Positions 7,181 through 61,336 of a stretch of DNA of 64,000 nucleotides are shown here, piece by piece. Under the pieces are notes generated by a model. It ran no database searches, was not told the origin of the DNA, and worked only from the letters and a program-made list of their open reading frames with translations. This stretch comes from an uncultured Enterobacterales bacterium (GTDB lineage Bacteria > Myxococcota_A > UBA796 > CAJQPC01): assembly GCA_964610645.1 (NCBI GenBank), contig CAZSZE010000005.1, forward strand, positions 33,282 to 97,281. Direction: 5' to 3'. How positions within the stretch are numbered: position 1 is the first letter of the stretch; every line of letters starts with the position of its first letter. Position numbers and translations under genes: made by a program.

Positions 7181-8026
7181 GTGCTGTGTGTGCGTCCGAT
7201 TTCGCTGTTTTTGGTGTGCCTTGCCTCCGCGGGATGTGGGAAAGGGGGAAGCGGTCTGTTTGGCAAGGAAGGGGAGGAGGAAACGGGCAGCCAGCCGGGG
7301 GAAGATGCCAACCTCACCGCTCCGGAGGAGCTGTGCTACCTCCATGACAAGGCCTGGAAACTGGCGGTGTTTGAAGAGGCCCTCTGGATCACCACCCAGC
7401 ATGGGGGAGAGATCTGGACCTGGGTGGAAGGGCAGGAGCGAGCCAGTGAAGCCCTGACCAACTTGTCTTTCGTGGAGGCTGTCGAGCCGTGGAATGGCGG
7501 GTTGTGGGCCTCCATGAGCGACTCGGGCGTGGAGGGAAGTGTGGGTCTTTTGGGTGCGGAGGGCGCGGTGGTGGTGCAGGCGACCGCCACTGCGTCGGGT
7601 GCCCTGATGCGTCGTCCCCTGGGGATGGTCGTGCAGGACGGCGACCTGTTCATGGCGGACCCTGCGGCGGGCGTCATCTGGCGTCTTTCCCCGGGCGCGA
7701 CCGTCGTGGAGGAGATGAGCTCGCCTGCGGATCCACTGACGGTGGAGAGCTGGCAGGGGGACCTGGTGATCGGTGCAGATGAGGGTGTGTGGGTCGACCG
7801 AGACGGTGCATGGGAGTCCCTCGATGATCGGCCGGCCTATGGGCTGGCGGTATTGGGAGACCGGCTCTTTGCCACCAATGCCACGGAGGGTTTGTTCGAG
7901 GTCGGCGGCGCGGACCTGATGGGGTCGGGCCCCGCTCGCCCGGGGTCAATCGTGGCCTGGGAGAACGACCTCTACCTGGCCGACTCGGTGGGGGGTTCAA
8001 TCTGGCGTCTTTCCCTGGAGCCTTGA
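7181..8026 (+). CDS. lipoprotein with beta-propeller-like repeats
   Basis: N-terminus MLCVRPISLFLVCLASAGC has a lipobox. Strand motifs recur (AAGVIWRLSPG, VGGSIWRLSLEP, DRLFATNA, NDLYLADS), as in NHL/SMP-30-like propellers. Confidence 0.55.
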   Translation: MLCVRPISLFLVCLASAGCGKGGSGLFGKEGEEETGSQPGEDANLTAPEELCYLHDKAWKLAVFEEALWITTQHGGEIWTWVEGQERASEALTNLSFVEAVEPWNGGLWASMSDSGVEGSVGLLGAEGAVVVQATATASGALMRRPLGMVVQDGDLFMADPAAGVIWRLSPGATVVEEMSSPADPLTVESWQGDLVIGADEGVWVDRDGAWESLDDRPAYGLAVLGDRLFATNATEGLFEVGGADLMGSGPARPGSIVAWENDLYLADSVGGSIWRLSLEP

Positions 8027-8062
8027 TCCGGGTATGGGGCCTGTACCCACGGAGGCCCTGGC

Positions 8063-9778
8063 GTGGAACCCGGCGAGTTGTTTGCAAGAGAGCTGCGGGG
8101 AGCTGAGGATCGCCTGCGGGCAGCGGGCCTTTCTGGGCGCGGCGCGTTTCTCGCCCTGACCCGGCACCTTTCGGGGCGCCTGTCTCTGCCGGAGCACCTG
8201 TGGCCGGACGGTCCCGATGCGCCAAGCGTCGCCCGCCTGGAGCAGATTCCCCTCGCTGCGGACCTGGACCTGTTCGGCCTGGCCTACGAGCGCTTTTTCA
8301 CGGACCTGTTCAAGGGCCAGAAGGGCCAGTATTTTACGCCCCGGCCCCTCGTGGAGCTGATGGCAGACCTGGCAGAGGTGGGCCCCAGGGACCGGGTGTT
8401 GGATCCCACCTGTGGATCGGGTGGTTTCCTGGTAGCGGGCATGGATCGAGGCGCGGATGTGGATGGAGTGGATGTGGACCCGGACCTTGTGTCCCTGGCC
8501 CGGCTCAACCTTGCCCTCCACGGGGGAAATCCAAAGGCGGTCCAACAGGGGGACTTTTTTCGGAATCCACCTGAAGACACCTGGGATGTGATCCTGGCCA
8601 ACCCGCCGTTCTCAGTACCGGTCGAGGATCCGGACACCCTGGCCGGATTTGAATTGGCGGGGTCCCGCACCAGGGTGGTGTCGGATGCGTTGTTCCTGGA
8701 GGCGGCCTGGCGCCGGCTGGTGCCCAACGGCCGCTTGTGCACAGTGCTGCCCTACTCGGTCCTGGTCAATCCCACGGCCAAGCCCATTCGTGACTGGGTG
8801 GATGCACACTTTGTCCGGCGGGCGGTGGTCGCCCTGCCAGAAGGGGTGTTTCGACCGTTTGGTGGCACGGCCACCCGGGCTTGTGTCCTGCTGCTCCAGC
8901 GCAGGCCGGCCCGCGTGACGGACATGCTCGTGGCTGACATTGAACATCCTGGGTTTGATCCCAGCCGAAAGGACTACCGGAGATGCGAGCCGGACCAGCT
9001 GGCCGCGTTGCGGTTGTCCCTGAGGGGCGTACCCTTTGAGCGATCGATCCGCGTGGATGCGGGGGGTGCCTGGGCGCCCTCGGATCACCTGCGAAAGGAG
9101 AGTGTCGGGGCGAGCGTTTCCCGGGTGCGCTTTGGATCCCTGGCCCACATGGAGGTCAATCGACTGGACCCCAGCGCGGAGCCCGGAGAGGCGTTCACCG
9201 AGGTGGACCTCTCGGACCTGGACAAGGAAACAGGAGAGGTCTCCGGGGCGCGGGTGCGGCAGGGTGCCGACTTTTCTCGGGGCCAGAGCAAGGCCACCTT
9301 TGCCGAGGGAGACCTCCTGTTTGGAAAGATGCGTCCCAACCTGAACAACGTGGCCATGGCCACGCGTCCTCGGCCGGACCTGCCGGAGCGCATGGTGGGA
9401 AGCGGAGAATGGGTGCCCTTTCGGGCGTCCCGGGACCCTTACTTCGCGCTGTTGGCCCTGCGGTCCATCTTTGCCCGAGAACAGCTCACCACAACCGGGG
9501 GCCAGACACGCCCCCGGGCACGGGTGGAGGACATTCCGGAGGTGAAGGTGCCGGATCCCGGGGCGGCGGCCCGGGAGCGGTTTCATTTCCTCCTGCGCTC
9601 CATTCACGAGGAGCGAATGCGCCTGCGCCACCTGCTGGTGGAAGTGGAGGCACTCTACGAGGCTTTTGGTCGGGGAACGGTGGACGAGGAGGGCCTGTGC
9701 ACCGCATTGGACGAATTGGAGGGCCGGCGGGAGGCGCCCGGGGGCGGCATCGAGGAGGATGAACCCGAGGGTTGTTGA
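8063..9778 (+). CDS. N6-adenine DNA methyltransferase fused to a single type I S-subunit-like target recognition domain (HsdM-HsdS fusion)
   Basis: The N-terminal half has QYFTPRPLVELM, motif I VLDPTCGSGGFLV and motif IV ILANPPFSV. The C-terminal half has the S-subunit pattern FAEGDLLFGKMRPNLNNVAMA and GSGEWVPFR, plus a helical tail. Confidence 0.8.
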   Translation: MEPGELFARELRGAEDRLRAAGLSGRGAFLALTRHLSGRLSLPEHLWPDGPDAPSVARLEQIPLAADLDLFGLAYERFFTDLFKGQKGQYFTPRPLVELMADLAEVGPRDRVLDPTCGSGGFLVAGMDRGADVDGVDVDPDLVSLARLNLALHGGNPKAVQQGDFFRNPPEDTWDVILANPPFSVPVEDPDTLAGFELAGSRTRVVSDALFLEAAWRRLVPNGRLCTVLPYSVLVNPTAKPIRDWVDAHFVRRAVVALPEGVFRPFGGTATRACVLLLQRRPARVTDMLVADIEHPGFDPSRKDYRRCEPDQLAALRLSLRGVPFERSIRVDAGGAWAPSDHLRKESVGASVSRVRFGSLAHMEVNRLDPSAEPGEAFTEVDLSDLDKETGEVSGARVRQGADFSRGQSKATFAEGDLLFGKMRPNLNNVAMATRPRPDLPERMVGSGEWVPFRASRDPYFALLALRSIFAREQLTTTGGQTRPRARVEDIPEVKVPDPGAAARERFHFLLRSIHEERMRLRHLLVEVEALYEAFGRGTVDEEGLCTALDELEGRREAPGGGIEEDEPEGC

Positions 9779-9787
9779 GGGGGGGGA

Positions 9788-9815
9788 TTGACGCGTCAAC
9801 AAATAGTGGTATCCT
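9788..9815 (+). promoter_or_regulatory. candidate sigma70-type promoter with a palindromic operator
   Basis: TTGACG (9788-9793), a 16-nt spacer, then TATCCT (9810-9815). The -35 element lies inside the perfect 12-bp palindrome TTGACGCGTCAA (9788-9799), about 80 nt upstream of the HTH gene. Confidence 0.35.
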
Positions 9816-9895
9816 GCAAATGAGGCGTAACAGTCTCGCGGGAAACCAGGATGGCGTTCGCCGTCCGCAACAAGGACAGTCAGGGAGGCAAGAAT

Positions 9896-32352: not shown

Positions 32353-34905
32353 CTACAGCCTGGTGATGGTCACGTAGCCGTCTCCTGAGGTGCCGCTGCC
32401 GCCGGTGCTGGTACTCGGGTTGGAGCCGGAGTTGAAGGAGCCGCCGCCGCCGCCGCCATCACAGTAATTTCCACCCCCGCCGCCGGAGTAACCGCCGCCG
32501 CCCCCGCCGTAGACGTCGTGGTAGGTCCCGCCGCCTCCACCAAATCCCCCTGCACCGGCATTGCTTCCGCAGGTGGCTGCACAGTTGCCCCCGGTGGCGC
32601 CGTTCAGGAAACTCAATCCACCCGAGGCATCGCCGGGGGCATCCCCTCCGTCGCCGCTCAAGCCGCCGCCTCCTCCACCATAGCTGCCTCCACAGGAGTC
32701 GCCGCCGCTGCCTCCGCTGCCTCCACTGCAGGAGCTGGAGACGCCGCTGGTCGAGTCGGTCGCGTCCTGGGTGGACCGGTGTTGATCTCCTCGGCATGGG
32801 GCACCGCCGCCTCCTGCAATGATGAGGGGAGTGTCATCGGAGGCGACCACGAAGGAACCTCCGCCGGCACCGGCATGGGCGTTGACCGTCTGTCCCACTT
32901 GTCCCACCAGGATCTGAAGAATGTCCCCCTGGGTCAGGGTGAGATCCCCGTTGATGATGGCACCCCGTCCGGGGTAGCTGGTGTAGCTGGTGTTGCTTCC
33001 CGAGCCAGCGCCTGCGACTACCACTGTGTAGGTCCCGTCTTCAGGGACCGTCCATCTCTGGATGCCCTGAGTGGACATGTCCAAGTAGGACTGGTCTTCG
33101 TCCCAGACGGTGCTGTAGGCGCCTCGACAGTCCGACAGCGTTGGGCCATTGCGCCCGCTGGCGCCACAGGCCGAAAAGGTGTGGGCCGAGAAATCGTAGA
33201 GGCTGCAGCCCGTGTTGATGCTGGCATCTGTGTCGTCACAGTCCGTGCCGGTGATGATGTGCTCTTCGCTGTCAAAGCCATCCCCATCCGCGTCGTAGTC
33301 CGAGGCACCGTCGCAGTCTGAGTCGTCGCCGTCATACCAGGTTTCCGTAGCGGCCGGGCTGATCGCGCTGTTCCCATCATCGCAGTCGGTCCCGTCGACC
33401 AGGTACCCGCTGGGCTGGTTGCAGACGCTGACACTGGTACTGGCATCGCCGTAGCCATCCCCATCGTCGTCCAAATAGAAGGTGTTCAGGCCCGTGGCCC
33501 CGGTGTCGTTGTCATCGGCCAGGCCGTTGCAGTCCTCGTCGGTGTCCGAGGCATCACAGACCTCGGCGGTCGACGGGTTTACCCCTGCATCCAGGTCGTT
33601 GCAGTCGTCGCTGGACGCCACAAAACCGGTGGATGCGTTGCAGGCGGTCTCGGTCAGGGTCGTGGAGCCGTGCCCATCGCCATCCAGATCCACGTACCAG
33701 GTGGTGGCGTCGCTAGCGTCGGCGCCGTCGACGGTCCCATTGCAGTCGTCGTCCACCCCGTTGCAGGTTTCGGTGCCCGAGGGGCTGATGGCGGCATCGC
33801 CGTCGTTACAGTCGGTGGCATCCGACACGTGGCCGGAAGGCATGTCGCAGGAATCCACGGAAGATGCGGCATCCCCGAATCCATCGGAGTCGGTATCGGC
33901 GTACCAGGTACCCTCTCCGAGCGAGCCGGCCTCGTCGACGGACCCGTTGCAGTCGTTGTCCACTCCGTCGCAGACCTCCACGCCGCCCGGGTGCACACCG
34001 GAGGCGGTGTCGTTGCAGTCGTCCCCGTTGGCGCTGTAGCCTGGGGGTGCATCGCACGCGGTGGTCACCGAGCTGGCGTCTCCGTAGCCATCCCCGTCAG
34101 CGTCGGCGTACCAGGAGAAGCCCACCCCTTCGTCGATGGCGGTGTCGCAGTCGTTGTCCTTCTCGTCGCAGATCTCCGCGGCACCGGGGTAGGAGAGGGG
34201 TTCCAGGTCGTCGCAGTCGTCGGAGTTGTCGACGTAGCCGCCAGGGACCTCGCAGGCGTCGGTGGTGAACTGGCTGCCTCCGAACCCATCGGAGTCGGCG
34301 TCCGCGTACCAGGTCGGGGCTCCGGAGAGCAGAGGATCCTCGTCGTCGATCAGGCCGTCGCAGTTGTCGTCGATGGCGTTGCAGGTCTCGGTCGCATCGG
34401 GGTTCACCGCCGCGTCGGAGTCGTTGCATTCGGCGCAGGCGGCGTATCCGTCCCCGTCGACATCGGCGTAGCCCACCGAGCCATCGCAGTTGTAGTCCAT
34501 TGGGTCCTCGCAGTCGGACTCGATGGCGGTGGGGTTGAACAGGGCGCTGGTATCGTCGCAGTCCAGCTCGTTGGTGACGTAGCCGGTGGGGGCATCGCAG
34601 GACCACAGGGACTCGTCCGGGTTGCCGAATCCATCTGAGTCGGCGTCCGCGAAGTACAGGACATCGTCCACGGGGTCGTCGTCTATGAGCAGGTTGCAGT
34701 CGTTGTCCACCCCGTCGCAGACCTCGGCGGCGCCCGGGAAGACCGTGGGGTCGTTGTCGTCGCAGTCGTCGGTGTAGCCGTCGCCGTCCGCATCTCCGCT
34801 GGAGGCGCCGCTGTCATCGGACAAGTCGTCGGTGTCGGGTGCGTCCTTGGAGCCGTCACAGCCGACGAGGAGCAGAAGGAGCAGATGGATCAGGACGGTA
34901 CGCAC
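32353..34905 (-). CDS. large lipoprotein: about 11 MopE-type Cys-rich 'putative metal-binding' repeats plus a C-terminal ALK/LTK-like glycine-rich domain
   Basis: MRTVLIHLLLLLLVGCDG has a lipobox. Repeats take the form DADGDGYG...C..P.GYV....DC(D/N)D.D..V.PGA.E.CDG.DNDC.G..D. The last ~280 aa are FSACGASGRNGPTLSDC..AY, WTVPEDGTYTVVVAGAG, GDILQILVGQVG, GAGGGSFVV, PLIIAGGGGA, GGFGGGGG, GGGGGGYSGGGGG. Confidence 0.8.
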   Translation of the reverse strand: MRTVLIHLLLLLLVGCDGSKDAPDTDDLSDDSGASSGDADGDGYTDDCDDNDPTVFPGAAEVCDGVDNDCNLLIDDDPVDDVLYFADADSDGFGNPDESLWSCDAPTGYVTNELDCDDTSALFNPTAIESDCEDPMDYNCDGSVGYADVDGDGYAACAECNDSDAAVNPDATETCNAIDDNCDGLIDDEDPLLSGAPTWYADADSDGFGGSQFTTDACEVPGGYVDNSDDCDDLEPLSYPGAAEICDEKDNDCDTAIDEGVGFSWYADADGDGYGDASSVTTACDAPPGYSANGDDCNDTASGVHPGGVEVCDGVDNDCNGSVDEAGSLGEGTWYADTDSDGFGDAASSVDSCDMPSGHVSDATDCNDGDAAISPSGTETCNGVDDDCNGTVDGADASDATTWYVDLDGDGHGSTTLTETACNASTGFVASSDDCNDLDAGVNPSTAEVCDASDTDEDCNGLADDNDTGATGLNTFYLDDDGDGYGDASTSVSVCNQPSGYLVDGTDCDDGNSAISPAATETWYDGDDSDCDGASDYDADGDGFDSEEHIITGTDCDDTDASINTGCSLYDFSAHTFSACGASGRNGPTLSDCRGAYSTVWDEDQSYLDMSTQGIQRWTVPEDGTYTVVVAGAGSGSNTSYTSYPGRGAIINGDLTLTQGDILQILVGQVGQTVNAHAGAGGGSFVVASDDTPLIIAGGGGAPCRGDQHRSTQDATDSTSGVSSSCSGGSGGSGGDSCGGSYGGGGGGLSGDGGDAPGDASGGLSFLNGATGGNCAATCGSNAGAGGFGGGGGTYHDVYGGGGGGYSGGGGGNYCDGGGGGGSFNSGSNPSTSTGGSGTSGDGYVTITRL

Positions 34906-35042
34906 GGTGCCTCCAGGATGGAGGCCTATTGTATGCTACGAAACTGCCCTGCAGGCTGGTGTGGATCACGTAGCCACATCGAACCTCAGGTAGGATGGGT
35001 ACCGGAGCGAGGCGCAAGGCACGTCGCCTCAGGAGAGATTCC

Positions 35043-37334
35043 ATGCGGTTTGCACTTTTTGCGCTCGGGCTGCTGGTCTCGTGTCGCAGCAGCAATGTCA
35101 TCAAGAAAGGGGACACCCTGGACACCGACGGTTTGGTCGATACCGGTCTGATCGACACGCACGTGGAACCGGTGGATGCGGACGAGGACGGGTTTGCTGC
35201 CGACGAGGACTGCGACGATACCGACGCGGCGGTGAACCCCGATGCGACCGAGACCTGTGATGGCATCGACAACGACTGCGACGGCCTTATCGACGACGAC
35301 GATCCAGGGGTGGGCGGCAGGGCGACGTGGTACGCGGATGCGGACGGCGACGGGTACGGCAACGCGGGGTTCTCCACCGAGGCTTGCGAGGCGCCGGTGG
35401 GCCACGTGGCCGATTCAGGGGACTGCGATGATGGCGACGCGGCCTTTCACCCGGGCGCCGACGAGTCGGACTGCACCGACCCCGCCGACTACAACTGCGA
35501 TGGCTCGGTAGGCCATGCCGATGTGGACGGGGATGGCTTTGCCGCCTGCGAGGACTGCGACGACACCGTCGCCACCACCAGCCCCCTGGGCACCGAGGTG
35601 TGCGATGGAGTCGACAACGACTGCGACGGGGACACGGATGAAGACGACGCGGCCGATGCGGCCACCTGGTACGGGGATGCGGATGGGGATGGTTTTGGCG
35701 ATGGGTCCAGTCCCGTCAGCGCCTGCGAGGCCCCCTCGGGCCACGTGGACGATGACACGGACTGCGACGACTCCCTCTCGGCGGTGAACCCGGACGGTGT
35801 GGAGTCTTGCAACGGGGTGGACGACAACTGCGATGGCGCCGTGGACGAGGGGGTGCTCCCCACCTGGTACGGCGATTCCGACGGGGACGGATACGGGGGG
35901 ACCACGTTTTCCGCCGAGTCCTGCAGCGTCCCCAGCGGCTACGTGGACAACGCCGACGACTGCGATGACCTGGAGTCCTCTGTGTTTCCCGGGGCCACCG
36001 AGGTCTGCAACGGGGTGGACGACAACTGCGACGGGTCGGTGGACACCGCAGCCGTGGATGCCACCACCTGGCACATCGACTACGATGGCGACGGATACGG
36101 CAGCCAGAGCGCCGCGTTTGATGTCACCGCCTGCAATGCACCCGGCGGCTACGTGTCCGATGCCACCGACTGCGACGACGCCGACGCCACCAGCCATCCC
36201 GGCGGAACCGAGGTGTGCGACTTGGCGGACAATGACTGCAACGGCTCCGTGGACGAGGGGGTGGGCACCACCTGGTACGCCGATGCCGACTCCGACGGCC
36301 ACGGCGACGGTGCCAGTCCCACCGTCGCCTGCAGCCCCCCCACCGGGCACGTGGCCAATGCAGATGATTGCGATGACACCGATGCCACCGCCCATCCCGG
36401 CGGAACCGAGATCTGCGACGGCGTGGACAACAACTGCCTGAATGGCGTGGACGAGGGGGTGAGCACGCCCTACTACGCGGACGGCGACAGCGACGGCTAC
36501 GGCGATGTCACCAACCCCATCAACGCTTGCAGCCAACCCTCGGGGTATGTCTCCGACGCCACCGATTGCGATGACACCGACTCCACGAGCTACCCCGGCG
36601 CCACGGAGCAATGCGATGGCATAGACCACGACTGCGATGGAAGCCCGGCCGCCACCAACGGCCAGAGCCCTGCCTGCGCGGGCACTACCTGTCAATCCAT
36701 CCTTGCCGCGGACGTCAGCGCCGCCGATGGCACGTACTACCTGGACCCGGCGGCCGATGGAACCATTATCGAGGCCTACTGCGAGATGACCTTCGACGGG
36801 GGTGGCTGGTTGGCGGTCTACAACCTCACCGCCCAGGCGGAGGACAACTCCGGCGCCGCCATCATGTGGAACTCGATCAACAACCGGGCGGACATGACCC
36901 AGGCAGTGCTACCCGACTCGGACAGTGCGTCCATCTACACGTCGAACCTGCCCCTGGCCAGCTACACCGAGGTGGTCTACGGCTGGGCCCCCACCACCAC
37001 TGACGACGTGTCCCGGTACGGCACCTACTCCAACTCCTCCGGCCTGGCCTCGGAGTGCTACCTGGGATTGCTGTGCGGCAACGGGTCGAATCTAGCCACC
37101 ATGACCGTCGTGCCCACGGGCACGGTGCAGGTGTTCCAGACCGGCAACAGCCCCGGCTACCCCCACGTGGGCATCGGCTGGTCGGGGCAGATCATCGTCT
37201 GGGGCTACGACAACAACGCCTCCTCCTACAGCCACTGGGCCAACTGGTACGACACAAAGTCCTGCTGCACCTCCGGCAACACCTCTGAGATGTCCGGCAA
37301 CACCTCCTGGCACTACGTCATCTACATCCGATGA
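35043..37334 (+). CDS. large lipoprotein: about 10 MopE-type Cys-rich repeats plus a C-terminal fibrinogen-related-like globular domain
   Basis: ORF 34995..37334, trimmed to MRFALFALGLLVSC (lipobox). It uses the same repeat type as the divergent neighbour. C-terminal domain: CAGTTCQSILAADVSAADGTYYLDPAADGTIIEAYCEMTFDGGGWLAVYN. Confidence 0.8.
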   Translation: MRFALFALGLLVSCRSSNVIKKGDTLDTDGLVDTGLIDTHVEPVDADEDGFAADEDCDDTDAAVNPDATETCDGIDNDCDGLIDDDDPGVGGRATWYADADGDGYGNAGFSTEACEAPVGHVADSGDCDDGDAAFHPGADESDCTDPADYNCDGSVGHADVDGDGFAACEDCDDTVATTSPLGTEVCDGVDNDCDGDTDEDDAADAATWYGDADGDGFGDGSSPVSACEAPSGHVDDDTDCDDSLSAVNPDGVESCNGVDDNCDGAVDEGVLPTWYGDSDGDGYGGTTFSAESCSVPSGYVDNADDCDDLESSVFPGATEVCNGVDDNCDGSVDTAAVDATTWHIDYDGDGYGSQSAAFDVTACNAPGGYVSDATDCDDADATSHPGGTEVCDLADNDCNGSVDEGVGTTWYADADSDGHGDGASPTVACSPPTGHVANADDCDDTDATAHPGGTEICDGVDNNCLNGVDEGVSTPYYADGDSDGYGDVTNPINACSQPSGYVSDATDCDDTDSTSYPGATEQCDGIDHDCDGSPAATNGQSPACAGTTCQSILAADVSAADGTYYLDPAADGTIIEAYCEMTFDGGGWLAVYNLTAQAEDNSGAAIMWNSINNRADMTQAVLPDSDSASIYTSNLPLASYTEVVYGWAPTTTDDVSRYGTYSNSSGLASECYLGLLCGNGSNLATMTVVPTGTVQVFQTGNSPGYPHVGIGWSGQIIVWGYDNNASSYSHWANWYDTKSCCTSGNTSEMSGNTSWHYVIYIR

Positions 37335-37417
37335 GGCCCGACATGAAGTCTCTACTCCTCCAAGGAGTCGGGACAGGCCTCGACGACCTCCTGGTTGGAG
37401 CAGATCGCAACAACGAC

Positions 37418-37735
37418 GGGGGGAGATACGGCATCTCCCCCTGTTCTTGTCGCTGGAAGGGCCCCTCGGCGCTCCGGCTGCGACAAATGAAGGGGGGTAT
37501 GGAATGACCCCCCCCGAAACTGTCGCAATGCCGCCCCCAACTGCGACACCTGGCAGGGGGGATGCGGTATCTCCTCCCGGTCTTGTCGCAGGAGATGGTC
37601 CTGGGCGTCCAAAGTAGGACATATGCAAGGGGGGATGCGGTATCTCCCCACGTTCTTGTCGCAGGAGATCTCCTGGGCGTCCATGGTGCGACATCGCCCA
37701 GGGGGGCGCTATCTCCCCCCATTTGGTCGCAGGGG
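37418..37735. repeat. tandem array of about five degenerate ~64-74-nt units, each with two inverted repeats
   Basis: Units start at 37418, 37492, 37556, 37629 and 37701, each with G6. Hairpin A example: GGGGAGAT-ACGGC-ATCTCCCC. Hairpin B is built on GTCGCA...TGCGAC (for example TGTCGCA 37521-37527 / TGCGACA 37542-37548). The period is not a multiple of 3. Confidence 0.7.
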
Positions 37736-37887: not shown

Positions 37888-38610
37888 CTAAAACCAAGCC
37901 GTCTCCGACAACGCCCCGCAGTTCACGGTGCTCAACGTCCCCTGGATCCGCCCCGATGCCAGGTGCTCGTCGGTGTCATCCGGATCATGCGGAAACGTCC
38001 CCCGCCACTCCTTCAGGTCCATTTCGACCTCAAGACCGCGGGTAGCCTCATCCCGAACGGCAATGGACAACGTGCCCTTCCAGGCGCTCGGCGTGAACAG
38101 GTCGCCGGACCAGTACCAGCCCATGCCCTGGTTCCCGTTCTTGTACTCCCACTCGCCCTCCCCGTAGGCGCACCGGGCGCGGACGATGGCCCCCAGGTCC
38201 GTCTGGAGGTCGTAGGTCTCCAAAGGCGGTCCCGAGGTGACCTGCAGGTCGATGTTGCAGTGGCCAGCCAGGAAGAGGTCGTTGGGGTCGTACTCTCCCT
38301 CCACCCCGAGGGTTACCGCCACGTCCTCACACCTCGCATTGCGGTTGGAGGATGCGTAGAGCAGGGTGGCCGTGTCGCTGTAAAAGGAAAACGCGCGGAC
38401 CAGGCTCACGGCGCCGGTGTGCACACCATCGCGGGTGTCGAGATTGCCTGTGACCATCGGGTCGGGGTCCGGATCGGAGCCCGTGTCGTCCCCGGTTTCT
38501 TCGGACGTGTCCTGTGCCGTGTCGTCCGGGTCGACATCCTTGGTGGCCGGATCACCGGTGCATGCAGCCACAACCACCACAAGCGGAAGGAGAAATAGGG
38601 ATCGGCGCAT
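37888..38610 (-). CDS. hypothetical lipoprotein
   Basis: MRRSLFLLPLVVVVAACTGD has a lipobox, followed by an acidic linker and a beta-rich body. No family was recognised. Confidence 0.6.
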   Translation of the reverse strand: MRRSLFLLPLVVVVAACTGDPATKDVDPDDTAQDTSEETGDDTGSDPDPDPMVTGNLDTRDGVHTGAVSLVRAFSFYSDTATLLYASSNRNARCEDVAVTLGVEGEYDPNDLFLAGHCNIDLQVTSGPPLETYDLQTDLGAIVRARCAYGEGEWEYKNGNQGMGWYWSGDLFTPSAWKGTLSIAVRDEATRGLEVEMDLKEWRGTFPHDPDDTDEHLASGRIQGTLSTVNCGALSETAWF

Positions 38611-44645: not shown

Positions 44646-46574
<1,929 letters not shown>

Positions 46575-46653
46575 CGGAAACCTCTTGCGGTGGAAGGAGA
46601 GGACTGCGGCTACAGGGTAGGACGGGTGCAACGGGAGATCCGTTACAACGGCA

Positions 46654-47724
46654 TCACCAGCTACCCAGCGGGCCTCCCATGGCGCCAAGGTCGGCGCGGC
46701 TTCCATCAGCATCCTGGAGATCGGGCGGGCCAGCATCTACCGCGGGGCTGCCCGCGCGAAGCCTGAAGTCCTCGCCGGCGGCGTCTTCGAAGCCGGGATC
46801 AGCGTAGAGAAGGCCCTCCCCCTCGGGCCAGGCAGTGCCGGCCGAGGCACTGGCCCAGGAAACCTGCGGCCACAGCAGGTTGTACTCGTTCTCAAAGGTG
46901 TAGCCCCGCGCCTCCATGAACCGAAAGGCCCACGGGCTCCCCTGCGGAACGACAATGAGGTTCCCTCTCAGGTTTCCCTGGGGTTCGTAGAACCACTCGC
47001 CGGCGGGACCATCCTGTGAGGTGTTCAAGTACAAGGTGTTGAAGACGACTTCCCCCTTGCAGTTGGTGCAGACGACTCCGCCCCCCCCGTCGTCCGCATG
47101 GTTGAAGGCAATGATGTTGTTGGTCACGGTGGCATAGCCATGGCGCATGTACACGCCCCCAGCGATGCGGGCGCTGTTGTTCACGATGATGTTGTGGCGA
47201 ATGATCGGGTCAGCATTCTCCACGAAGATGCCGCCTCCGTGGCCCTCTGTTCCCCATCCGTTTTGAAGGGTGAAGCCCTCCAAGACCGCGGTAGAGGGCT
47301 CCTGGGCCCGCATGCTCACCACGGAACCCTCACCCTCTCCATCGAGAATGGTCTGGGCGGCACCCGCCATGGAACGCACGGTGATTCCCTTGCCGTGAAA
47401 GTCGATCCTCTCCAGGTGCAGGCCGGGCGCCACAAGCACTGTGTCTCCGTCGCCCGCTTGCTCGATGGCTTCCTGGATGGTGGAGAAGAAGAGGCCCTTG
47501 TTCTCCAGGTGGGCGACGGCCTCTCCCCAGCCGGTGTCTCCGGTCTCTGTCGCGGAGTCATCCGGGGAGGCGCCGGAGTCCGTGTCTGTAACGGGGAGGG
47601 CGGTGTCATCGTCGCTGTCCGTGTCCCCCACACGCGGGAAGTGAAGCAGGGGCCCGCCAAAGGTCATTGGTTTGCAAGCCGTACAACAGAACAACAGAGG
47701 CAGTGACAGGAAGTGCAAGCGCAT
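46654..47724 (-). CDS. right-handed parallel beta-helix repeat lipoprotein
   Basis: Trimmed to MRLHFLSLPLLFCCTAC (lipobox). Motifs: DGDTVLVAPGLHLERIDFHGKGITV, GGGIFVENADPIIRHNIIVNNSA, GGGVVC. Confidence 0.7.
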   Translation of the reverse strand: MRLHFLSLPLLFCCTACKPMTFGGPLLHFPRVGDTDSDDDTALPVTDTDSGASPDDSATETGDTGWGEAVAHLENKGLFFSTIQEAIEQAGDGDTVLVAPGLHLERIDFHGKGITVRSMAGAAQTILDGEGEGSVVSMRAQEPSTAVLEGFTLQNGWGTEGHGGGIFVENADPIIRHNIIVNNSARIAGGVYMRHGYATVTNNIIAFNHADDGGGGVVCTNCKGEVVFNTLYLNTSQDGPAGEWFYEPQGNLRGNLIVVPQGSPWAFRFMEARGYTFENEYNLLWPQVSWASASAGTAWPEGEGLLYADPGFEDAAGEDFRLRAGSPAVDAGPPDLQDADGSRADLGAMGGPLGSW

Positions 47725-58357: not shown

Positions 58358-61336
58358 CTATTCGCTGACCGGCTCCGTCGGCGCAGACAGCCAGTCCGGC
58401 AATCCCGGCGCATCAAATCCGCCCCCATCCCGATCGACCCAGATGGGATTGGTCAGGGCAAACGGGTGGACAGCCCCATCTCGGGGAAACGCGATGGGAT
58501 CACCTGCCAAGGCCGCGAGTGCCGGCACCACGGTGATCGCTTCCGCCACCACGTCCTGCAGCTGAATGGGGGGAATATCCACCGGCGTGAACAGGGGCTC
58601 CAGGCTGTCATTGCCCACCGCGATCACCACGTACCAGGCATCCACTTCCCCGGGAACATCCACGGACTGGAGAAAGTTCACCGTGTCCACGTTGGGGGTG
58701 GTCACAGCCCAGGATTGAATCAGGGTGCCGTTTTCATAGAGCTCCACACGGTCCACATCGAACCAGGAAGGGGAGCGCACCTCGATGTCCAGGGTCACCA
58801 CCCCATCGTCCACGGAAATCTCGCTGCCAATGGGTTGATCGCCCTCCGCGTAGAGACTGATGAAGGGCCCGTAGGACAGCACCACCTGGTGGTTGCGCAC
58901 CGCCATCGCCACGTCATCCCCGGTCAGGAAGGCTGGGTTGTCCGTGGGTGCCATGACCCAGTTGCGTGGGCACCCGGCCTCGACGGTGGTCATGCCGTGG
59001 GTGTCCGAGTTGGCAAGGGCCGTGTGCTTGAACCCCAGGTTCAGCAGGGAGAACCAGTCATCCACCTGCCCCTTGACGCCGAACCCGAGCGTCTCCGCAC
59101 CGGATGCAAGGTCTGACTGCTCGGCGTCGGTGCGGGAGAGAATCTCGTACACGCTCACATCCCCGGCGTCGGCGTGCTGGTCCAGCTCGGACTGGGTGGG
59201 GGTGCGGATGAAGTCGTAGCGCTTGCCGTTGAGGATCTCAAGCGCATCGAAATCCAGGGTGAAGAACTGGGACTTGAAGAACAGGGGATTTGCCGCTGCC
59301 GCAGAAGTCCCTGGATTCGCCACGGGATTGCCCGGCGTGCCGCTGTAGGGGTCAAATCCAAACTGGTCGAAATACCCGAGGATTCCATCGCGGGGGTGAG
59401 CCACCATCGTGACCGGGTCCGCGCCGAGCTCCTTGATTCCATCGAGGATCTCCCCGGGAATCATCCCGGTCCAGTCCATGGCCCCGCCGGCCTCGTCCAG
59501 GAAGTCGTGGTCCAGGGGGAAGCCCAGGTAGTGACCGGCCTCCATGGGGGTCACCTCCAGGCCGATGGCCGACTGGACCCACTGCTCCAGGCCGAGGTCC
59601 TCGATGACCGGGGCGTAGTCCACGATCTGGTCATGATCCGAGGAAACAAGGAACTCCACCCCCTCGGCCGCCATGGTGATCACGCGATCCGGGAGCGACA
59701 CGCCGGAGTCGAAGGACGGCTGGGCATGCACATGCATGTCCGCGCTGACCCAGCCAGCGGTGTCCACCGAGTGGACCACCTGCAGCTCGATCTCCACCGG
59801 CCGGGAGACCTCCACATCGAACACCGCGCGTCCGAGTTCATACTCCGGGCCACGGGTGGCATAGGCCACGTAGGCCCCCGGGGGGAGATGCGTATCGCCG
59901 GTGCCATGGCCGGCAAAGACCACGGCCGCTGGATCGCCCCCGATAAAGCCGTCTCCCAGTATGGGGTCCAGGACCGAGGAGCCGTCCTCTGTGAACACCG
60001 TGACCTTGCCGGGAAGGGGCAGGCCCGTCTCGTCCACGATTCGAAAGGAGACCTCCCCGGTGCGGCGGGCGGCGAGGGTCAAATCCGTGGGGGAGCCGTC
60101 CTCCACGGAAATCGCGATGCGCGGCCCACTCGGTCGGCCCTTTTCGTGCACCTGCAGCTCCCAGTCGCCCTCCGCAAGCAGTCCGGAGAAGGACCCGTCC
60201 GGGTGGATGTCCTCCAGGCTGACGTCTGTGCGCCACTCGGAGTAGGGGCGCTCGCCACCGGACTTGTAGACCAGTACCTGCACGCCGGAGAGGGGGCGGC
60301 CCGTGCCTTCTTCCACCACGTGTCCCCGAACTCGCGCCCTCTTTGTTCCCCGGGCCTCCAGCACCATGTCCAGCACCGAGCCAATGTCCCCGTGGCCCAG
60401 GGCAAAGATGCGTTCATAGGTCCAGGTGGCTCCTGGCAGGGAGGCATCCACCTCCTCCACGGGAACCAAGGCACCGATGGCTGCGGTCTGGGAGGAGGCC
60501 ACCAACGGCAACAGAATCTTGCCCTGCGATGTTGCAATGCCGTAGGAGATGCCCGTGGAGGTCCCAGCCACGAGGTCCACTGCGAGGGGTTCGATAAACA
60601 GGTTTCGATTGGCTTGTTGGGCGTCGTAGACGGCGCCCAGCTCGTGGAACCCCACCTCGCTGGCAAATACGTCCATGTTCCCACCCAGGTGCACAAAGTC
60701 CCCAAGCGCCAGGCCGCCCAAGAGCGCCTGCCCCACGATGCTCTCGGGGCCATCCAATCCGGACAGGGCCTCGCCTTCGGTGTCCGGATCGATTTCAGCC
60801 CCCCCGAGGGAGACGGTGGTGCGAATCGTGACCCAGCGCTCCTTGGGGCGCAGGATGTAGTCCGTGACCACCCACCCGGGGCGAACCCCGCCCCCGGTGG
60901 AGACCAGGGGCTTCACCAGGTCCAGGAAGGGGGTCATGGGGGCACTGACCCGCACGATGGCGGCGTCCCCCGTGTCTTCGAGGATCGACACCGTGCCGCC
61001 CTCCGCCACCACCCCGGGCACAAAGAGATTGGCCGTCGAGAGCACCTCGGCCAACCGGTCGTTGCCGTGACCCCCGGACCACTGGGAGCCCCCTCGTCTC
61101 AGGTCGGCATCCAGGATGCTTCCGCCATCGATGCCCGGGCCGAAAGAGATCCGCTCCCCGGCGATGGCAAAGCGGACGCGGTCGTTCTCAAGGAGGATGT
61201 CCCCGGGTTGGGCGAGCGCCTTGGGGCCGCCGATGCCCTGGGTCAGGTCCTCCAGCACTGTGGCCCTGGCAAAACCGGGATCCGGCTCGGGTTGGCAGGA
61301 CAGGAGGACGACGGAAAGGGAGAGGAGCGTGCGCAT
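58358..61336 (-). CDS. large lipoprotein with a PHP/CehA-McbA-type metallophosphoesterase domain and a carboxypeptidase-regulatory-like domain
   Basis: MRTLLSLSVVLLSC has a lipobox. Motifs: RVRGHVVEEGTGRPLSGVQVLVY, ADMHVHAQPSFDS...LVSSDHD. Confidence 0.65.
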   Translation of the reverse strand: MRTLLSLSVVLLSCQPEPDPGFARATVLEDLTQGIGGPKALAQPGDILLENDRVRFAIAGERISFGPGIDGGSILDADLRRGGSQWSGGHGNDRLAEVLSTANLFVPGVVAEGGTVSILEDTGDAAIVRVSAPMTPFLDLVKPLVSTGGGVRPGWVVTDYILRPKERWVTIRTTVSLGGAEIDPDTEGEALSGLDGPESIVGQALLGGLALGDFVHLGGNMDVFASEVGFHELGAVYDAQQANRNLFIEPLAVDLVAGTSTGISYGIATSQGKILLPLVASSQTAAIGALVPVEEVDASLPGATWTYERIFALGHGDIGSVLDMVLEARGTKRARVRGHVVEEGTGRPLSGVQVLVYKSGGERPYSEWRTDVSLEDIHPDGSFSGLLAEGDWELQVHEKGRPSGPRIAISVEDGSPTDLTLAARRTGEVSFRIVDETGLPLPGKVTVFTEDGSSVLDPILGDGFIGGDPAAVVFAGHGTGDTHLPPGAYVAYATRGPEYELGRAVFDVEVSRPVEIELQVVHSVDTAGWVSADMHVHAQPSFDSGVSLPDRVITMAAEGVEFLVSSDHDQIVDYAPVIEDLGLEQWVQSAIGLEVTPMEAGHYLGFPLDHDFLDEAGGAMDWTGMIPGEILDGIKELGADPVTMVAHPRDGILGYFDQFGFDPYSGTPGNPVANPGTSAAAANPLFFKSQFFTLDFDALEILNGKRYDFIRTPTQSELDQHADAGDVSVYEILSRTDAEQSDLASGAETLGFGVKGQVDDWFSLLNLGFKHTALANSDTHGMTTVEAGCPRNWVMAPTDNPAFLTGDDVAMAVRNHQVVLSYGPFISLYAEGDQPIGSEISVDDGVVTLDIEVRSPSWFDVDRVELYENGTLIQSWAVTTPNVDTVNFLQSVDVPGEVDAWYVVIAVGNDSLEPLFTPVDIPPIQLQDVVAEAITVVPALAALAGDPIAFPRDGAVHPFALTNPIWVDRDGGGFDAPGLPDWLSAPTEPVSE

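Follow-up and report, generated by a model that had tools for sequence, protein, structure and literature searches.

What might a bacterium do with two genes that start back to back, share the same tandem module and end in different domains? The question is raised by positions 32353–37334 of a 64,000-nucleotide (nt) stretch of an uncultured bacterium (contig CAZSZE010000005.1 of assembly GCA_964610645.1, positions 33,282 to 97,281), here called the window, where the divergent genes g1 and g2 are located. Both inferred products are lipoproteins with a stalk of MopE-type modules and a C-terminal head, and they are probably lipid-anchored envelope proteins in which an acidic stalk carries a different binding head in each, that is, adhesins or lectins. 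The parts of the locus are as follows (aa, amino acids; bp, base pairs).

32353–34905, minus strand: g1, an 850-aa lipoprotein with a signal peptide, an acidic linker, nine MopE-type modules and an ALK/LTK-type head
35043–37334, plus strand: g2, a 763-aa lipoprotein with a signal peptide, a linker, eight MopE-type modules and a fibrinogen/intelectin-like head
34906–35042: intergenic region, 137 bp between the divergent starts, with both Shine-Dalgarno sites inside
34858–34905, minus strand: signal peptide of g1, lipobox LLVGC with Cys16, translation MRTVLIHLLLLLLVGCDGS
35043–35084, plus strand: signal peptide of g2, lipobox LLVSC with Cys14, translation MRFALFALGLLVSCRSS
33211–34794, minus strand: g1 stalk, modules A1–A9, aa 38–565, placed by the DxDxDG and DC[DN]D motif positions, the module table and DNA repeats
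35175–36644, plus strand: g2 stalk, modules B1–B8, aa 45–534, placed by motif positions, the module table and DNA repeats
32356–33210, minus strand: g1 head, a TNF-like plus polyglycine-rich (TG) domain, aa 566–850, placed by PDB sequence match, model and Foldseek
36675–37331, plus strand: g2 head, fibrinogen-related or X-type-lectin-like, approximately aa 545–763, ending in WHYVIYIR

An earlier note, made from the letters and their open reading frames (ORFs), had placed two genes at 34905 and 35043 on opposite strands, with a lipobox in each and with an ALK-like head on one and a head like a fibrinogen-related domain (FReD) on the other. This description agrees with what was found: ORFs are present at both positions, separated by a gap of 137 bp, LLVGC and LLVSC are seen in the translations, and the two heads are mutually unrelated, with names that are correct by domain, sequence and fold matches. 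The start codon is GTG in g1 and ATG in g2; the open frame of g2 extends up to 34995, and the ATG at 35043 was used as the start, which is also the one chosen by the gene callers of public collections. Each start is preceded at 5 nt by a Shine-Dalgarno sequence, GGAGG at 34910–34914 on the minus strand for g1 and AGGAGAG at 35031–35037 for g2. The lipobox pattern [LVI][ASTVI][GAS]C is present as MRTVLIHLLLLLLVG-C16 in g1 and MRFALFALGLLVS-C14 in g2. Both promoters presumably lie within 34906–35042, a region with no match to a σ70-type promoter, the σ70 consensus being uninformative for this lineage. A 7-bp GC-rich hairpin (GCCTCCA-GGA-TGGAGGC) is found at 34909–34925, with the GGAGG of g1 in one arm, which could mask it; the folding of the 71-nt leader of g1 was not significant against shuffled sequences (z -1.47).

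The stalks match PF11617 (Cu-binding_MopE) with 217.2 bits in g1 and 245.3 bits in g2 (cut-off 27), in eight stretches of each protein. Counted by their DxDxDG start there are nine modules in g1, the last one truncated, and eight in g2, with lengths of 49–73 aa; the 10–11 copies of about 45 aa reported at first came from overcounting a shorter unit, and the term giant does not suit proteins of 850 and 763 aa, whereas relatives reach 3,200–3,400 aa with 30–40 modules. The full module begins with the loop DxDxDG[YF]G, continues with the hairpin C..P.GY, which is missing from short modules, and then has the 30-aa PF11617 motif (DCDD......PG..E.CDG.DNDC.G..DE) and a linker, ..TWY. In the DNA the copies recur every 198–210 nt, with repeat families D2, D3 and D5 spaced by about 198–219 nt in g1, and family D1, five copies of 190 nt spaced by 198–210 nt, in g2. 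Asp makes up 22.5% of the g1 stalk and 22.7% of the g2 stalk, Lys and Arg together 0.2% of each, and the stalk isoelectric point is 4.05. Each stalk contains 31 Cys, and the number of Cys outside the lipobox is even in both whole proteins (40 and 38). DxDxDG is an established Ca2+ site, and from the Asp-rich composition with its even Cys count we infer that the modules bind Ca2+ and are disulfide-bonded. A hidden Markov model of the module, run against all six frames of the window, found no MopE genes besides g1 and g2.

The two stalks are paralogous. Residues 1–534 of each protein align collinearly at 47.7% identity (E 8e-92), so that the repeats are not unrelated and the duplication that had been proposed stands, and the order of modules is common to both, namely a short one, a long variant (ESDC..DYNCDGS), a short one and then long modules. 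The longest exact run shared at the DNA level is 37 nt, followed by runs of 23 and 19 nt. The g2 stalk shows 49% identity to g1 and likewise 49% to the relatives of g1 in loci L002 and L003, to which g1 is closer (53–55%), and by this comparison the stalk duplication is old, older than the splits between those species. A recent duplication or concerted evolution is ruled out by an identity of 48% in amino acids and about 70% in nucleotides.

The head of g1 matches PF12810 (ALK_LTK_GRD) at residues 622–833 with 28.3 bits (cut-off 24.5), and in a phmmer search of the PDB it matches the receptors ALK (7mzy, E 5.6e-14) and LTK (7nx0, E 2.9e-11). A structure predicted from an alignment of 29 homologues has a predicted local distance difference test score (pLDDT) of 92.1 and a predicted template modelling score (pTM) of 0.92, and Foldseek against the PDB retrieves LTK (7nx1) with E 2.8e-15, with LTK and ALK at template modelling (TM) scores of 0.64–0.73 and 24–28% identity. 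The opening FTxCGxxGxxGPT and the poly-Gly stretches align with ALK/LTK. The g1 head is thus a complete homologue, about 285 aa long, of the TG unit of these receptors (PF12810; 7NX0, 7NX1, 7MZY, 7LRZ), whereas g1 has no transmembrane helix, kinase, MAM, LDLa or EGF-like domain and carries the unit at the C-terminus of a lipoprotein stalk, where the protein ends.

Bacterial and phage relatives of this head outnumber ALK/LTK and are at least as close. At least 579 homologues were found in the protein search, mostly metagenomic and 300–450 aa long, some of them with prepilin, TSP1, fn3, EGF or PEP-CTERM parts. Predicted phage and viral structures match with E 3e-18, a TM score of 0.75 and 35% identity, and these matches include many cyanophage and Caulobacter-phage proteins named "glycine-rich domain" or "virion structural"; in a cultured cyanophage the homologue is encoded close to structural genes. 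With hundreds of bacterial homologues, and phage proteins at least as close as the animal ones, the head is not specifically animal and the label "metazoan-like" in the earlier note is misleading. In the tail fibre of phage Pam3 a TNF-like plus glycine-rich unit is the distal, receptor-recognising part, and its likeness to ALK was noted there; Pam3 gp24 (7YFW) and gp38 of Salmonella phage S16 (6F45) both have a TNF-like sandwich and a glycine-rich lattice at the far end of an elongated protein, a part to which recognition of the host receptor is assigned (PMC9608196). That the g1 head is read as a binding tip rests chiefly on the phage tail-fibre matches. Compared directly, the solved Pam3 fibre matches weakly (E 0.12). 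The fibre of the phages is trimeric, has a helical shaft and needs a chaperone, whereas the shaft of g1 is made of MopE modules. Some phage homologues (OQ999401.1, 115886–116332, and BFVD entries) bear the annotation "ALK tyrosine kinase receptor" or "receptor protein-tyrosine kinase", which was carried over from the domain match; the proteins lack a kinase and are probably virion fibre parts.

The head of g2 matches NF040941 (GGGWT_bact, YCDxxxxGGGW) at residues 549–590 with 53.4 bits (cut-off 30), and its closest solved sequences by phmmer are intelectin-1 (E 1.6e-4) and XEEL (E 3e-4). The model has a pLDDT of 74.8 and a pTM of 0.79, and Foldseek places XEEL and intelectin first (E 6e-6 to 1e-4, TM 0.44–0.53; XEEL at E 6e-6, intelectin at TM 0.52), followed by the FReDs of angiopoietin, FGL1, ficolin and tachylectin at TM scores of about 0.4; overall the similarity to the FReD fold lies at TM 0.39–0.53, with the presumed P-subdomain region (our own assignment) poorly modelled. 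PF00147, which is precomputed for the relatives P0127, P0128 and P0136, gave no match to g2 at E ≤ 0.01. The profile of the g2-head family aligns to solved FReDs over approximately the first 50 residues, and the opening C...DGxY...YCxMxxxGGGW is common to the g2 head, intelectin-1 (4WMQ), XEEL (4WMO), ficolins and tachylectin 5A. The remaining residues, about 165, have no sequence similarity to solved FReDs and show a signature of their own, with YPHVGxG, WGYDxN, vicinal CC and a C-terminal WRYVIYIR.

The full-length family of this head is small, with 18 proteins in a word-indexed search and roughly 25–30 clusters at 50% identity in an exhaustive one, whereas the short opening motif is very common (10,433 matches, often many per protein). 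In three proteins of 3,100–4,500 aa (P0168, P0169 and P0170) 14–15 stretches match the profile, best over the opening YCDxxxxGGGW subdomain, which suggests that this subdomain is also used as a stand-alone repeat. A secreted protein of the hemichordate Ptychodera flava contains a domain 43–44% identical to the g2 head. Its gene (L086 4001–10431, CM083785.1) has at least seven exons, extends over 6.4 kb and lies on a chromosome of 50 Mb and 39% GC, and is on these grounds a genuine animal gene and not contamination. As the family is otherwise small and mostly bacterial, the sequence comparison marks this gene as one that may have been transferred between bacteria and animals, in either direction.

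How general this architecture is was addressed by using g1 and g2 to scan genomes of GTDB and metagenomes of JGI, which gave 160 loci, mostly in freshwater and marine metagenome-assembled genomes (MAGs) labelled Myxococcota, Deltaproteobacteria or Bradymonadia, the remaining ones being some Bacteroidota and some evidently mislabelled bins. The C-terminal tails of the 148 ORFs with at least three modules were scanned against Pfam, and among the first 69 tails the counts cover the 25 most frequent of 42 families, which makes the figure for ALK_LTK_GRD a lower bound; Fibrinogen_C and COLFI were counted per family and can share one tail.

FG-GAP propellers (integrin-type): 27 tails
Fibrinogen_C: 11 tails
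COLFI: 10 tails
Chlamydia PMP repeats: 7 tails
C-type lectins: 5 tails
FGE-sulfatase: 3 tails
RCC1: 3 tails
L-type lectins: 2 tails
LamG: 2 tails
Olfactomedin: 1 tail
Kelch: 1 tail
ALK_LTK_GRD: at least 1 tail

GDSL-lipase domains and sorting tails of the type IX secretion system are also found on MopE stalks. Most identified tails are extracellular binding or repeat modules, and enzymes (FGE-sulfatase, GDSL-lipase) are present as well. Since so many heads occur on related stalks, the stalk-plus-variable-head design is general, and the family that the earlier note had proposed from the two genes extends well beyond this locus.

The same head was found in one orthologue of g1 (L003, head 70% identical) and in three of g2 (L088, L098 and L152, 51–56%). 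Of these distant g2 orthologues L152 alone can be read on its upstream side, where no divergent partner is present; for L088 and L098 there is hardly any sequence on that side, or none. No flanking genes are shared with the closest GTDB relatives, L002 and L003, where both contigs end at the gene. Of the 80 loci from metagenomes, 17 contain at least two stalk genes, arranged in tandem, convergently or divergently. Clustering of paralogues is typical and the divergent orientation is not special. The long relatives include a stalk protein of 3,423 aa with 30 modules in a Saprospiraceae MAG (L005 5816–16084) and one of 3,218 aa with 40 modules (L008 9710–19363) that lies within a run of four consecutive MopE-stalk genes. 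Five MAG records (L002, L003, L017, L024 and L032) are labelled Enterobacterales or Klebsiella pneumoniae and contain Myxococcota-type genes; these labels are evidently wrong.

Taken as lipid-anchored adhesins or lectins, the two proteins would be exported with cleavage of the signal peptide, and the lipobox Cys would become the lipid anchor, joined to the stalk by a short acidic linker. In the stalk the Asp residues would bind Ca2+ and each module would have two disulfides, which may make it a stiff extender, and recognition would be the task of the C-terminal globular head. In g1 this head is predicted to have the TNF-like plus polyglycine-II fold of phage fibre receptor-binding tips and of the ligand-binding region of ALK/LTK, and in g2 a fibrinogen-related, intelectin-like lectin fold. 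If both genes are expressed and their products exposed, the pair would display two binding specificities away from the membrane and might attach to, or sense, glycans or proteins on cells or particles. In RTX adhesins such as Marinomonas MpIBP and Salmonella SiiE, a Ca2+-dependent repeat extender carries sugar- or protein-binding domains at its far end, and g1 and g2 may be analogous in having a long modular extender with distal binding domains. The repeats of the RTX adhesins are BIg domains and not MopE modules, however, they use type I secretion and an outer-membrane retention module in place of an N-terminal lipid, and they are much larger than g1 and g2.

Several observations weigh against this interpretation. 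In g1 the lipidated Cys is followed directly by Asp, and in E. coli an Asp at position +2 keeps lipoproteins in the inner membrane. The rule is not established in the present lineage; should it hold there, g1 would face into the periplasm and not outwards. In the g2 head the part that would bind the ligand was modelled poorly, with a pLDDT of about 50 at residues 180–222. By sequence the stalk has no match in the PDB at E ≤ 1, MopE* included. The taxonomy is based on relatives of NuoD at 66–72% identity, together with MAG labels that include some clearly wrong ones.

Strain variants bear on a possible addition to the adhesin interpretation. Near-identical contigs are present in several metagenome assemblies (99.4–99.9% over the unrearranged parts), and three sites are of importance in comparing them with the window.

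36171–36373, plus strand: site in g2 where contig L082 lacks 198 nt (66 aa, one module) of the window, in frame
34382–34418, minus strand: left arm of a 37-nt exact inverted repeat, in module A3 of g1, aa 163–175, DAAVNPDATETC
35221–35257, plus strand: right arm of the same repeat, in module B1 of g2, aa 60–72

Contig L082 is 99.8% identical and has the same gene order over 13 kb, and the 697-aa protein of its shortened g2 (7770–9863; P0142) is otherwise identical to g2. The deletion joins module B6 to B7 in register, so that the reading frame and the module consensus are kept, with a microhomology of 5 nt (TGCGA) at the junction, and because this is too short for a k-mer collapse we take the deletion to be real, and with it a stalk-length polymorphism within the population. 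The 37-nt arms sit in a 131-nt tract of 82% identity (inverted repeat I2) and flank 802 bp containing both gene starts and the intergenic region. A second contig, L085 (2.9 kb, 1–2885), encodes a protein that equals g1 residues 1–175 joined to g2 residues 73–763, residue for residue, with the join in the 37-nt repeat, and is either a real recombination or a misassembly.

If the repeat between A3 and B1 recombined, the 802-bp segment with the promoters, the signal peptides and the initial modules of the two genes would be inverted, pairing each 5' cassette with the other head and changing the module numbers from nine and eight to about seven and ten. Such a RecA-type switch for surface variation would add to the adhesin interpretation and not replace it, and we regard it as doubtful. 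The exact chimera of L085 is what it predicts, the join lies within the longest exact identity of the two genes (37 nt, the next being 23 nt), module A3 is closer to B1 (67% in amino acids, 82% in nucleotides) than to its positional partner B3 (50% in amino acids), which fits a past gene conversion there, and the strain with one module deleted indicates that the stalks do vary. The join is, however, seen in a single short and probably low-coverage contig, the parental order is present in the window and in four other contigs, and a de Bruijn assembler at thin coverage can make such a join at a 37-nt inverted repeat. The reciprocal product, g2 residues 1–72 with g1 residues 176–850, was sought in the protein collection as three strain variants and none of them is present there, the 37-mer had no match in JGI metagenome contigs, and the distant orthologue L152 is not divergently paired. 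The arms are also near the lower limit of length for efficient homologous recombination.

In the sap system of Campylobacter fetus, RecA-dependent inversion takes place between oppositely oriented surface-protein genes that share 5' regions. The present locus resembles it in having two oppositely oriented surface-protein paralogues, with homologous 5' coding regions flanking a promoter region, and in L085, which would be the product expected of such an inversion. It differs in that the homology is 37 nt exact within 131 nt at 82%, against several hundred identical bases in sap, and in having two promoters where sap has one. In contrast to shufflons and the Hin and Gin systems, no recombinase, invertase or integrase was found among the window ORFs scanned against Pfam. 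If the inversion were true, then together with the in-register loss of modules it would let the population vary both the reach of each head and the promoter that serves it.

A periplasmic location for the two proteins, tethered to the inner membrane as envelope spacers, Ca2+ stores or sensors of periplasmic ligands, is unlikely. It would accommodate the Asp at +2 of g1, disulfide-rich and Ca2+-binding modules fit the periplasm equally well, and no gene for an export or sorting partner is evident nearby. On the other hand the +2 rule is not universal, the corresponding residue in g2 is Arg, stalks of up to 40 modules in the relatives are hard to fit into a periplasm, and the heads are homologous to receptor-binding tips of phages and to lectins.

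That the proteins handle copper, by scavenging or buffering it in the envelope as the Pfam name would have it, is very unlikely in spite of the strong PF11617 matches. MopE itself is a secreted copper-binding protein, with a site formed by two His and a Trp-derived kynurenine (PMC3423442); PF11617 is a small motif of MopE and CorA and is non-specific for that family (PMC6189053). What g1 and g2 have in common with MopE/CorA of methanotrophs is the short Cys/Asp motif C.DG.DN.CDG..D, repeated eight to nine times per protein here, whereas the His/His/kynurenine site lies outside this motif and has no counterpart in them. The modules contain no conserved His or Met and no His/Trp triad, their even Cys count is best explained by disulfides, and the dominating Asp is a hard ligand suited to Ca2+; a role as metal buffer would moreover leave the varied binding heads unexplained. 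Copper binding, the Cu half of the Cu/Ca test proposed in the earlier note, was rejected on the residue content of the repeats, and the Pfam label is probably misleading for these proteins.

There are two long antisense ORFs in the same region.

33670–34638, plus strand: antisense shadow ORF of 322 aa, Val/Ala/Gly-rich, no Pfam family, opposite g1, which is under purifying selection
35415–36695, minus strand: antisense shadow ORF of 426 aa, no Pfam match, not a gene

They were called artefacts of the repeats in the earlier note; artefacts they are, with no Pfam match in either, and the cause is instead the shadow of codons rich in GAC, GGC and TGC. In the sense frames the GC content at third codon positions (0.81 in g1, 0.85 in g2) follows the coding pattern of the other genes of the window. 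Five independent contigs carry intact ORFs, a protein identical to g2 was called on an NCBI metagenome contig, and the g1 protein recurs on three further contigs with 2–3 substitutions. The ratio of nonsynonymous to synonymous substitution rates (dN/dS) is 0.30 for the g1 head and 0.47 for the g1 stalk against the L003 orthologue, and 0.35 between the stalks of g1 and g2, values that are rough as dS is close to saturation. With dN/dS at 0.30–0.47, g1 and g2 are functional genes under purifying selection. That they are instead non-functional, decaying repeats or annotation artefacts of a high-GC genome is hardly credible: long ORFs, the antisense pair among them, do arise easily at 65% GC, but curated domain models match both genes, the model of the g1 head is of high confidence, and the ORFs are unbroken across strains, where the sole deletion observed keeps the frame.

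The neighbourhood is made up of ordinary chromosomal genes and contains a nuo operon at about 20.3–30.2 kb (a NuoA-like sequence, a NuoB-type Pfam match and NuoD), and genes for a PDZ protein, an LPG_synthase_TM protein, PfkB, SIR2_2, an FAA hydrolase and a gamma-glutamyltranspeptidase. Further genes of envelope type are also present in the vicinity. A 240-aa lipoprotein without family match is encoded at 37888–38610 on the minus strand, convergent with g2, and is kept in L082; farther away, also on the minus strand, are a 587-aa LVIVD-repeat protein (44973–46736) and a 992-aa protein without Pfam match (58358–61336). No mobile-element family was found among the window ORFs scanned against Pfam, and no Rfam family in 32–38 kb. 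In the 550-bp gap after g2, at 37415–37720, there are about five copies of a unit of about 72 nt, with the hairpin GGGGGATGCGGTATCTCCCC at its core, followed by CTTGTCGCAGGAGAT (period 73 and 82% match by TRF). The motif occurs nowhere else in the window and has no Rfam match, and as the spacers are similar it is not a CRISPR array. The nearest named relatives of NuoD are from a "Myxococcota bacterium" (72%) and a "Deltaproteobacteria bacterium" (70%), and from these sequences we consider, with moderate confidence, that the organism is an uncultured aquatic Myxococcota-like bacterium.

All the component domains are already present in curated libraries and nothing here is categorically new. The literature searched gave nothing specific on PF12810 homologues of bacteria or on the MopE-stalk proteins of Myxococcota, and no description of a MopE stalk with an ALK-type head or with this small FReD-like head, or of the broad head repertoire. 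The finding is useful context rather than a surprise, and the function is putative. The fold of ALK/LTK, which is usually discussed as an animal receptor domain, is a common binding module of bacteria and phages, present here on a lipid-anchored stalk, and the family of the g2 head, with about 44% identity to an intron-bearing hemichordate gene, offers a tractable case of possible gene exchange between bacteria and animals. In the aquatic Myxococcota-like bacteria, most of which are uncultured, the MopE-type stalks carry a large set of exchangeable heads that could plausibly serve as a toolkit for the recognition of other cells or of prey.

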